Part shown: positions 5,486-7,569 of the stretch, piece by piece | Position numbering within the stretch: the stretch's first letter is position 1 | How the letters are laid out: every line of letters begins with the position of its first letter | Virus record (IMG/VR): IMGVR_UViG_3300033149_006612 | Coordinates: 1 to 64,000 of that record | Origin: a virus | Direction: 5' to 3' (one strand) | DNA: 64,000 bases | Made by a program: the position numbers and the translations under genes | Notes under the pieces: model-generated | The model's database searches: none | What the model was told of the DNA's origin: nothing | What the model saw: only the letters and a program-made list of their open reading frames with translations

Positions 5486-5746
5486 GACGGCCCCTACCGA
5501 AGGTAGGGATGAAAGGTGTAGGATTCGTACCCCGTGCGCCTTTATACCTAAAAAGGGGAGAGAGGGGGAAAAGCAACTCCCCCGATAAAAAGCGCACGGG
5601 GTCTCATATGACGTCGGAGTTTGAAATCCCACGAAATCCGTAGGAGGAGTCAAAGTTGTTGGGGGTCGACGTCATACATAAGGCTTTACGTTACTGTGAT
5701 TACACCCGGATCTGCCTCTACAAATCTACGACCGGACATCGCCGTC
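5486..5746. ncRNA. Candidate multibranched structured RNA in the MuF-glycosyltransferase gap
   Basis: Nested complementary segments 5486-5491/5741-5746, 5492-5498/5502-5508, 5515-5520/5701-5706, 5529-5539/5592-5602 (11 bp perfect) and 5607-5616/5667-5676 (10 bp perfect). Confidence 0.45.
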
Positions 5747-5757
5747 GGCACGTCGGT

Positions 5758-7569
5758 TCAGCCGATCTCCGAAGGTTCAACCGGTCTGGGTTTCTTAAGC
5801 GATACCCGTTCGATTTTATGTTTAAGGACACACCGACAGTTATGAGACACGATCCCGTTAACCAGATAACTCTCGTCCCCCTCTACGGAGAAGTTATAAA
5901 CCATAGCTGTGCCTTGTATCTGTGTTACATGTAAAATCGGGGCATGAAAGAAACCGACGAAGCTTACCTCGCCAGCATCATTGATGGGGGAGGAACGATC
6001 GCGCCTGCCGTCCGAAGAGGTAGAACCGTACCTCAGATTACACCAAAACTCTTTACATCCAACACTGACCTTAAATCGCTGCAGTGGGTGAAGGAAACCG
6101 CTGGAATCAACGGGTGGATGAAAGTGAAGCGATTTCAAGCCACTACCGCCAACGCTTCTACCCCCTGCAAAACCGCACTTCCATATCTCATCGTCAAGCG
6201 TAGACAAGCGGAGGTTATATCCGGCTTTCCAGGAGGACGAAGTACCGAGGACGTCGATACCTACATCCGCCAATTTCAGTGCCCGCCGCTCATATGAAAA
6301 TCGAATGACCCTACCGGTTCCCGACATAGCCAGTACGAGCATCTCCTCACCCGTAAACCGGCCGACCTCCTTCCATCCGGAGTCGGTAAGGAGTCTGTGA
6401 TTGCCGGTCAACCTGAGCTTTCGATGGAAGACTTCGACCTCTACTAGATCACCGGCTTCTCGACTGGCTGTCCTATTTACCCTTCGATATACACCTTGAT
6501 GGGAAAGAACCGCATCCCCCGGTTTAATGTCTGCAATTCGTTTCGGTCCTTTCACCGTGGCTATGACGGCGTCCGGATCCGCTATACAGTTCGCGATCTC
6601 CCCAACCGGCCCCGCCGGATCACGTGGAAACATCAGACCGTTGGAAAATCTCTCATCCAGCTTCCTCTTCTGCCCGTCCAGTCTAACGTGGGAATCCCGG
6701 ACCCTGCCGTCCCTGGCGGTCAACCAGATCTTCCACATCTCCCTGTCCGGTGTAAGCTGCCTGGCTATCTGTTCCGTGGTGTCCTGTTCAGCCAAACTGG
6801 TCAATTTTCCGACCTCCGTTCTGGCTATCACCTGTGGCCTGGATCTCACCCACCTGTTGTATCTAGCATTAATCCGGTCGAGTACCTCCCGTTCGGGAAC
6901 TCCCTCCTCGATGCTCTTCCGGATAATCCTGCCGAGGTCGTTAAGGGTAGTGGTACTCAATTGATCCACCAGGGGGGGAGCATAGTTGGCGAGGTAGGAT
7001 TCGGCTGAGGTAGTAAATCCAGGCCAGTCAAAGCCGAGCTCCGCCGCTTTCCATTTTGCAGCCTTGGTGGCCACACCGAGACCGAATACCTCAAGTTGAG
7101 CGGTCAGTCGATCCCCGGTTCGTTTCAACGTTCGGGAGACGACCACGTCCAGATCGGCTGCCCGAAATTCCTGTGCTCTGATGTCCGCGCCCTTCCTCGG
7201 CTTCCGGATCAATTTCGACTTCCGGATGGCCTTGGCGATCTCGGCAAACTCCACGGCGAAATGCTTCCGCATGATGATTCGCAGCTGATTTTCAAACCCG
7301 GCCGCCCGCCTGATCCACCTGGCCCAGTATCTGTCGTCCGCCGTGGCCCGTGCCTTGAACTCTGCAGACCTGATCCGTTTGATGTCGGCCGAGAACGGAA
7401 CGGTGACCGTCCCGGCACCGGCCTCCCAGATCTTATGCCGCCTCCGCCATTGACTGTGGCAGAACGCCGCACGCTGCGCCCGCTCCGGGAAATCCCGCCT
7501 GGACTCCGGATCTCCCATACAACGCTTCATCCATCCGGCCCTGGTTTCTCCTCTCCTCGGTTCCGGCAT
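5758..7569 (-). CDS. MuF/SPP1 gp7-like head morphogenesis protein containing an intein
   Basis: IARTE, KIWLTARDGRVRDSH..LDGQ, LMFPRDP...EIAN|CRC motifs, interrupted by an intein. Confidence 0.9.
   Translation of the reverse strand: MPEPRRGETRAGWMKRCMGDPESRRDFPERAQRAAFCHSQWRRRHKIWEAGAGTVTVPFSADIKRIRSAEFKARATADDRYWARWIRRAAGFENQLRIIMRKHFAVEFAEIAKAIRKSKLIRKPRKGADIRAQEFRAADLDVVVSRTLKRTGDRLTAQLEVFGLGVATKAAKWKAAELGFDWPGFTTSAESYLANYAPPLVDQLSTTTLNDLGRIIRKSIEEGVPEREVLDRINARYNRWVRSRPQVIARTEVGKLTSLAEQDTTEQIARQLTPDREMWKIWLTARDGRVRDSHVRLDGQKRKLDERFSNGLMFPRDPAGPVGEIANCIADPDAVIATVKGPKRIADIKPGDAVLSHQGVYRRVNRTASREAGDLVEVEVFHRKLRLTGNHRLLTDSGWKEVGRFTGEEMLVLAMSGTGRVIRFSYERRALKLADVGIDVLGTSSSWKAGYNLRLSTLDDEIWKCGFAGGRSVGGSGLKSLHFHPPVDSSGFLHPLQRFKVSVGCKEFWCNLRYGSTSSDGRRDRSSPINDAGEVSFVGFFHAPILHVTQIQGTAMVYNFSVEGDESYLVNGIVSHNCRCVLKHKIERVSLKKPRPVEPSEIG
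5839..6588 (-). mobile_element. Intein of 250 aa within MuF
   Basis: Block A CIADPDAVIAT, block B LRLTGNHRLL, blocks F/G VYNFSVEGDESYLVNGIVSHN followed by Cys+1; excision restores EIANCRC. Confidence 0.9.
5944..6297 (+). CDS. Single-motif LAGLIDADG homing-endonuclease-like ORF, antisense inside the intein (probably degenerate)
   Basis: AYLASIIDGGGTI (LAGLIDADG-like; acidic residue of GEG replaced by G), SNTDLKSLQWVK and LPYLIVKRRQAE motifs. Confidence 0.7.
   Translation: MKETDEAYLASIIDGGGTIAPAVRRGRTVPQITPKLFTSNTDLKSLQWVKETAGINGWMKVKRFQATTANASTPCKTALPYLIVKRRQAEVISGFPGGRSTEDVDTYIRQFQCPPLI

Follow-up and report, generated by a model that had tools for sequence, protein, structure and literature searches.

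Why should an intein carry, in the slot where an endonuclease domain is usually found, an endonuclease-like gene that is read from the other DNA strand? The question is raised by a MuF-like head morphogenesis gene on the minus strand of a 64,000-nucleotide stretch of viral DNA (positions 1 to 64,000 of the IMG/VR record IMGVR_UViG_3300033149_006612), which in its entirety is termed the window here. An earlier reading made from the letters alone (the sequence-only reading) had described an intein of 250 amino acids within this gene and, opposite its central region, an antisense open reading frame (ORF) of 117 codons with LAGLIDADG hallmarks, and had proposed that a free-standing endonuclease gene invaded a mini-intein in inverted orientation. 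We consider it very probable that the locus belongs to a known, rare class of non-canonical inteins: a class-1 MuF mini-intein with an antisense, codon-aligned gene for an I-CreI/I-MsoI-like endonuclease, homologous to elements of Gordonia phages and degenerating in this phage.

The boundaries proposed for the intein proved exact: it starts at ...GEIAN/CIADPD and ends at ...GIVSHN/CRCV (slashes mark the junctions), and its excision in silico restores the NCRC motif (N/CRC) common to MuF proteins. Both class 1 nucleophiles are present, namely Cys1 in CIADPD and Cys+1 in CRCV. The splicing blocks, which had been called intact, are indeed so: block B (LTGNH) and block F/G (VYNFSVEGDESYLVNGIVSHN, ending in His-Asn) are invariant in four inteins inserted at the same site, and they align to those of the DnaX and DnaB mini-inteins. 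The NCBIfam model of the intein C-terminal region (TIGR01443) recovers the element at 23.7 bits against a cut-off of 15.6, and the Pfam models Intein_splicing (PF14890; 29.1 against a gathering score of 35.8) and Hint_2 (PF13403; 24.3 against 28.4) both score below their thresholds. These Hint/intein matches lie C-terminal to the Phage_Mu_F domain of the MuF product (PF04233, E 3.7e-10, residues 215-316). From the intact blocks we infer a class 1 intein of the Hint fold that is probably capable of splicing. The antisense ORF fills the endonuclease slot exactly, from the end of the N-terminal to the beginning of the C-terminal Hint part and hence between blocks B and F as the sequence-only reading had it, and removal of the 118 endonuclease codons leaves a mini-intein of 132 residues. 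Among solved structures, the nearest by sequence are the Spl DnaX mini-intein (7cfv, E 7e-5) and then a DnaB mini-intein; the first of these comes from the other intein family known for an out-of-frame endonuclease.

The two strands of the insert gave very different results. In the sense frame, where no endonuclease motif had been recognized by eye, no endonuclease family was found at E <= 1 in Pfam, PHROGs or NCBIfam. The 354-bp segment also lacks the codon-usage signal of the phage and appears native on neither strand (log-likelihood ratio +/-3.9, as against 36.6 +/- 11.4 for phage genes). The antisense ORF, in contrast, had 114 phmmer matches at E <= 1e-3 in a library of 1.84 billion representative proteins (best E 4.6e-10). 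Most of these are proteins of 140-160 amino acids whose N-terminus aligns with the initiator methionine of the ORF, some are tandem two-domain proteins, and a Hint domain is absent from every relative that was checked. The ORF is also matched by the endonuclease family phrog_5046 (E 9e-6) in PHROGs. When 39 of the phmmer matches were aligned with the ORF, PF00961 (LAGLIDADG_1) matched 29 of the 40 rows, and the profile of this alignment reached I-MsoI (1e-30) and I-CreI (about 1e-11). We also searched the whole 80-kb genome, translated in six frames, with a family profile from which the window sequence had been excluded; the ORF was recovered with 83.5 bits (E 3e-25) over profile positions 1-108 of 138, and no second copy of the endonuclease domain was found in that search. 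An alignment-guided AlphaFold2 model (AF2; mean predicted local distance difference test score, pLDDT, 88.7) has the alpha-beta-beta-alpha-beta-beta-alpha core, and the top Foldseek matches of this model are I-CvuI, I-CreI and I-MsoI, with probability 1.0 and template modelling (TM) scores of 0.65-0.75. Thus, the LAGLIDADG character noted at the outset is borne out, and these profile and fold matches identify the ORF as a true homologue of the free-standing, single-motif LAGLIDADG endonucleases of the I-CreI/I-MsoI type, with the sense filler best read as the antisense read-through of its gene. The features of the locus are collected in Table 1.

Table 1. Features of the intein-interrupted MuF locus (positions in the window)
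Feature	Positions	Strand	Basis
MuF-like head morphogenesis / minor capsid gene, intein-interrupted	5758..7569	-	ORF list; PF04233 Phage_Mu_F; alignment to Gordonia phage MuF-like minor capsid protein
Intein, 250 amino acids, inserted at N/C...HN/CRC of the MuF NCRC motif	5839..6588	-	computed boundaries; TIGR01443; BLASTP to Nordenberg
N-terminal Hint part, intein residues 1-97, with Cys1 and block B LTGNH	6298..6588	-	alignments
Sense-frame filler, intein residues 98-215 (SYERR...GFFH), no recognizable domain	5944..6297	-	family searches; codon usage
C-terminal Hint part, intein residues 216-250, with blocks F and G VYNFSVEGDESYLVNGIVSHN, then Cys+1	5839..5943	-	alignments
Antisense ORF, 117 codons plus TGA, shortened homologue of I-CreI/I-MsoI-type single-motif LAGLIDADG endonucleases	5944..6297	+	phmmer; profile; PHROGs; structural model
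LAGLIDADG helix motif AYLASIIDGGGT	5962..5997	+	column counts over 220 family domains; alignment of 40 rows
TAAAAT, -10-like hexamer with its end 6 nt upstream of the endonuclease ATG	5932..5937	+	upstream comparison with relatives

A search for relatives of the whole arrangement led to phages of Gordonia. Using tblastn with the antisense ORF against 50,697 phage records, we obtained matches only in the Gordonia phages Nordenberg, Thing3, Sitar and Lennon, every one of them antisense to a MuF-like minor capsid gene (annotated in the Sitar record as "capsid morphogenesis protein + intein"). Searches with the window intein retrieved those same genes along with the ones from Barsten and SchottB, and the antisense construction is also held by Barsten and by the viral contig L088, whose endonuclease scores 107.5 bits. 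The host protein and the insertion site are the same in the Gordonia elements, and the Hint domains are homologous (BLASTP with the Nordenberg MuF intein, E 7e-20, with about 41% identity in the N-terminal Hint part). The opposite-strand ORFs are likewise homologous (E 2e-11), the Gordonia version matching the family over its full length (93 bits; positions 3-137 of the profile) and retaining an intact IDGEG signature. The codon-aligned register recurs in each of four lineages, and in all four the initiator methionine of the endonuclease stands opposite the conserved sense histidine of ...FH..., close to where the C-terminal Hint part begins. When the window was compared with its relatives frame by frame, the antisense frames matched at E 1.6e-15 and 1e-11, as against 0.007 and 29 for the sense-frame fillers. 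Unlike these similarities of layout, sequence identity is low (endonuclease, 24-30%; intein, about 29%), the phages are unrelated, and the window intein has 250 residues to the 275 of the Gordonia intein.

As a side observation, in the actinophage-type elements L084 (2357-3067, plus strand), L086 and L088 the endonuclease ORF continues for 40-50 codons beyond the LNxRG end and enters the reverse complement of the N-terminal Hint region, with its stop opposite sense residue 38 or 47; hence, part of the DNA for block B is double-coding there.

The Gordonia elements also allowed us to ask which of the two strands is seen by selection. Of the 825 positions of the intein, 136 differ between Nordenberg and Barsten. 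In the 441-nt endonuclease core 43 of the 56 substitutions fall on sense position 1, i.e. antisense position 3, and the ratio of nonsynonymous to synonymous rates (omega) is 1.72 in the sense frame as against 0.067 in the antisense frame; counted in residues, there are 45 changes in the former and nine in the latter. The situation is reversed in the N- and C-terminal Hint flanks, which have 40 substitutions each, with omega at 0.29-0.36 in the sense and about 1-2 in the antisense frame. Given the two omega values of the core, selection in these relatives sees the antisense gene rather than the sense filler. The antisense gene is therefore a maintained protein-coding gene in the active relatives, with the filler carried along. 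Such maintenance is seen in the Nordenberg/Barsten pair; the window copy, for its part, has lost a catalytic residue.

The absence of stop codons from both frames across 5944-6297, which had been noted at the outset and is confirmed here, is a less telling feature. The two frames are codon-aligned, with position 1 of one being position 3 of the other, and in this register two open opposite-strand frames need only the absence of TTA, CTA and TCA codons. An open aligned antisense frame is expected in 9% (from codon frequencies) to 15% (empirically) of 117-codon stretches of this phage, and in viral contigs the antisense frame is open over the whole domain in 36 of about 80 free-standing members of the endonuclease family. 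The six longest of these latter frames contain no Hint or intein domain, which indicates that the open antisense frames of the free-standing genes are due to chance. Two open frames are thus by themselves unremarkable, and to account for the open host frame it suffices to assume a filter at arrival.

We then considered the state of the endonuclease copy in the window. Codon 16 of the ORF (GGA, 5989-5991) specifies glycine at a position where 204 of 220 family domains have glutamate and 14 aspartate, the window supplying the sole glycine. In I-CreI-type enzymes this position is that of the metal-binding catalytic acid (D20 of I-CreI). Residue 11 is a serine in place of the glycine found in 199 of the 220 domains. 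These two replacements (Gly11 to Ser and Glu16 to Gly), both within the LAGLIDADG motif, are the only losses among 15 invariant or near-invariant columns; the 13 retained include N40, W48, P80, L82, K85 and A89. The ORF is further shortened to 117 residues, as against a core of about 147 in the relatives (within ORFs of 187-196 residues in the Gordonia phages) and of about 145 in the family: the C-terminal LNxRG region is missing and the beta3-beta4 hairpin is about 10 residues shorter than in the family. According to the title of PDB entry 2O7M, I-CreI needs its C-terminal loop for both binding and cleavage. All length differences from the family are in frame, as would be expected if the host frame forbids frameshifts. 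Given the shortening and the loss of the catalytic acid, the window copy is most likely a decaying remnant that no longer functions as a nuclease, and the change from GEG to GGG, which the sequence-only reading had taken as a hint of decay, acquires its weight from the family-wide count. That the ORF is still open would be accounted for by the ban on frameshifts imposed by the host frame, together with either the small number of substitutions accumulated so far or residual selection.

An alternative, which we regard as unlikely, is that the ORF still works, either as a nuclease relying on another acid or a partner, or as a catalytically dead DNA-binding protein serving some other purpose, such as target-site binding or regulation, and expressed from a leaderless antisense transcript. 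It would draw on the intact form of the ORF, with a methionine aligned to the family N-terminus, a stop at the slot edge, the retained near-invariant residues and a complete core fold in the predicted model, as well as on the strong purifying selection on the homologous gene in Gordonia phages. In all four lineages, moreover, the ATG is preceded by a hexamer of the form TAnnnT whose end lies exactly 6 nt away; it reads TACGAT or TAGTAT in the relatives, and in the GC-rich ones it is composed of A-ending sense codons (GTA, CTA, ATA). This hexamer might be the -10 box of a leaderless antisense mRNA. Against a working ORF stand the glycine at the metal-binding position and the absent C-terminal region, and also the regulatory signals: a consensus promoter scan of 5600-6700 yielded no sigma-70 site and no full -35/-10 pair, and no canonical ribosome-binding site was found for the ORF. 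A variant on the same theme, which appears to us quite unlikely, is that of an old composite element moving as a unit between unrelated phages, in this case from actinophage-type elements to an uncultured phage, with its own leaderless promoter, the dead ORF being kept here as a DNA-binding protein. We accordingly retain the degenerating composite intein as the preferred explanation. Right after the endonuclease ATG there is also a palindrome with a 10-bp stem (5953-5976), which scores as terminator-like on the minus strand (within the MuF mRNA); an antisense message from the plus strand would have this fold at its 5' end.

As to the origin of the arrangement, the existence of free-standing family members, the fact that the ORF has its own methionine and its own stop where the slot begins and ends, and the lack of Hint domains in the relatives checked support the capture of a free-standing endonuclease gene by a mini-intein, as opposed to the inversion in place of an in-frame domain. 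The latter process, with the match to free-standing enzymes being secondary, would have some precedent to build upon: inteins usually hold in-frame LAGLIDADG domains between blocks B and F, and MuF inteins with in-frame inserts exist at the same site. Nevertheless, it is highly improbable, given that intein-type domains are two-motif versions of the PF14528 type, whereas the homologues of the ORF are single-motif or tandem two-domain proteins with an aligned methionine of their own, and that the ORF starts and stops exactly at the slot edges in all lineages. No convincing inverted repeats were found to flank the insert, though these would be expected of an invertible segment. An artefact, be it a chance open frame with chance motifs or a misassembled inversion of the 354-bp segment, is barely credible: open antisense frames of this length are common enough in this phage and the sequence is present in one contig only, but a chance frame could attain neither the library-wide E-value nor the profile score given above, finished genomes of cultured Gordonia phages have the homologous intein in the same orientation and register, and the source record is complete with terminal repeats.

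The capture and the inverted orientation inferred by the sequence-only reading therefore stand, but not as an event in this phage. Since the window has its insertion site, orientation, register and start junction in common with the elements of the Gordonia phages and of L088, a single ancestral composite is indicated, which was most likely either inherited or acquired as a unit. At the junctions themselves we noticed a 7-nt direct repeat, AAAATCG, at 5933-5939 (just before the ATG) and 6297-6303 (overlapping the TGA), which could be a trace of the insertion junction; by a rough estimate, a match of this kind between two 25-nt junction windows has a 2-5% chance of occurring.

Some observations weigh against the explanation preferred here, namely an ancestral composite intein now in decay. 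Taken alone, the antisense ORF falls below the reporting limit of Pfam and likewise has no NCBIfam call, and the structural model depends on the family alignment, single-sequence AlphaFold reaching a pLDDT of only 36. The tree of the endonuclease (91 rows) is star-like, so that a clade of the window and Gordonia sequences is neither shown nor rejected (approximately unbiased test, p-AU 0.68); the likelihood of the tree constrained to contain it exceeds that of the quick free tree, although this does not prove the clade. With regard to decay, the survival of 13 of the 15 near-invariant residues and the lack of a stop in 117 codons fit a very recent inactivation or a non-catalytic retention as well as they fit decay. 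Finally, no close relative of the MuF-intein gene or of the phage, with which selection on either strand of the window's own copy could be measured, was found among 5.8 billion proteins, viral contigs and metagenome contigs.

Under the preferred explanation, ribosomes would read the MuF mRNA without interruption across the reverse complement of the endonuclease gene, giving a meaningless linker of 118 residues that, judging from the intact blocks, would be discarded with the intein as splicing joins ...GEIAN to CRCV.... In the active relatives the endonuclease would be made from an antisense transcript of its own and presumably cuts intein-less MuF alleles, such that the intein and the gene within it home as one unit. 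The loss of the catalytic acid and the shrinkage in the window would then correspond to the stage of decay that follows fixation in the homing cycle.

The host gene is a single unbroken minus-strand frame of 603 codons when counted from the first ATG in the ORF list; its start is ambiguous (7519-7569), the called database product (P0001) having 586 residues. The source phage has an 80-kb genome, a GC content of about 55% and a portal protein whose sole match in cultured phages is to that of an Exiguobacterium phage, at 21% identity; by these indications it is unrelated to the Gordonia phages.

The same insertion site has been put to other uses. In two MuF proteins of the library whose intein occupies the NCRC site, the insert is in frame instead: one (P0003) contains an HNH domain according to precomputed Pfam domains, along with a zinc-ribbon-like CxxC motif, and the other (P0002), a portal-MuF fusion, has a different insert that is nuclease-like by eye only. 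Counting the latter insert on the strength of its appearance, the site seems to host at least three endonuclease solutions. A profile search of genome contigs with the intein alignment found an I-CreI-type match on either strand at none of 80 loci (L093-L172), which are inteins from Chloroflexota, Planctomycetota and archaea, SufB and SpoVR-like ones among them. The block F/G motif VYNFSVEEDESY...HNC was seen to recur in SufB inteins of many metagenome-assembled genomes (MAGs) of Chloroflexota, and also in SpoVR-like proteins of Gemmataceae and other Planctomycetota (as mini-inteins) and in archaeal and candidate phyla radiation (CPR) genomes.

Several systems with a similar logic have been described. 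Gosselin, Arsenault and Gogarten (bioRxiv 10.1101/2025.01.02.630785) reported 63 non-canonical inteins in actinobacteriophages, seven of which lie in minor capsid genes of Gordonia phages and contain a LAGLIDADG gene in anti-sense orientation (SchottB, Kamashten, Thing3 and Barsten, as well as Lennon, Sitar and Nordenberg); they proposed invasion by free-standing endonuclease genes and predicted decay to mini-inteins. The same preprint credits antisense LAGLIDADG genes within inteins, those of Ssp DnaX and a Chloroflexus SpoVR-like protein, to Gorbalenya 1998 and Gogarten et al. 2002. As far as it is described there, the Ssp DnaX intein resembles the present one in its mini-intein-like splicing domain, in a LAGLIDADG endonuclease lying outside the intein frame and in the secondary invasion proposed for it; it differs in that its host is the cellular, cyanobacterial dnaX gene and in its endonuclease, which is of another lineage, and the similarity to the window intein is weak (E 7e-5, for the Spl DnaX mini-intein). 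For a dnaX intein, Phillips, DeSimone and Gogarten (bioRxiv 10.64898/2026.09.14.751524) found a frame-specific ratio of nonsynonymous to synonymous substitution (dN/dS), low in the endonuclease frame and raised in the host frame, but there the endonuclease lies in an overlapping '+2' frame. The "fractured genes" of Dassa et al. 2009 (PMC2677866) are a related outcome to which the same invasion model applies. In these there are two host ORFs, trans splicing and endonucleases of the GIY-YIG or Vsr-like kind, while the window has an inverted gene, a single host frame of 603 codons that runs across it and a contiguous intein. With the homodimeric enzymes I-CreI, I-MsoI and I-CvuI (PF00961) the window ORF has in common the single LAGLIDADG helix, the core fold as modelled and the NTD and LPYLxxKRxQAE elements. 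These enzymes differ from it in residing in group I introns, in their length of about 150-170 residues and in retaining an acidic catalytic residue.

The arrangement is thus already published, and the window presents a further, degenerate example in an uncultured phage rather than a new type of element. The Nordenberg/Barsten comparison, examined strand by strand, provides clean evidence for selection on the antisense gene in the active relatives. Inteins with an antisense endonuclease, a recently described class that is probably under-annotated, can easily be taken for mini-inteins or for inteins with a degenerate domain, which calls for a six-frame check of the endonuclease slot. The locus indicates that the MuF version of the composite element also occurs outside the actinobacteriophages, in a phage without a close cultured relative, and that its orientation, codon register and start junction have been conserved over a deep divergence. 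The copy in the window would accordingly capture the stage of decay that the homing cycle predicts, in which in-frame shrinkage and loss of catalysis have set in while the host frame is still read through.

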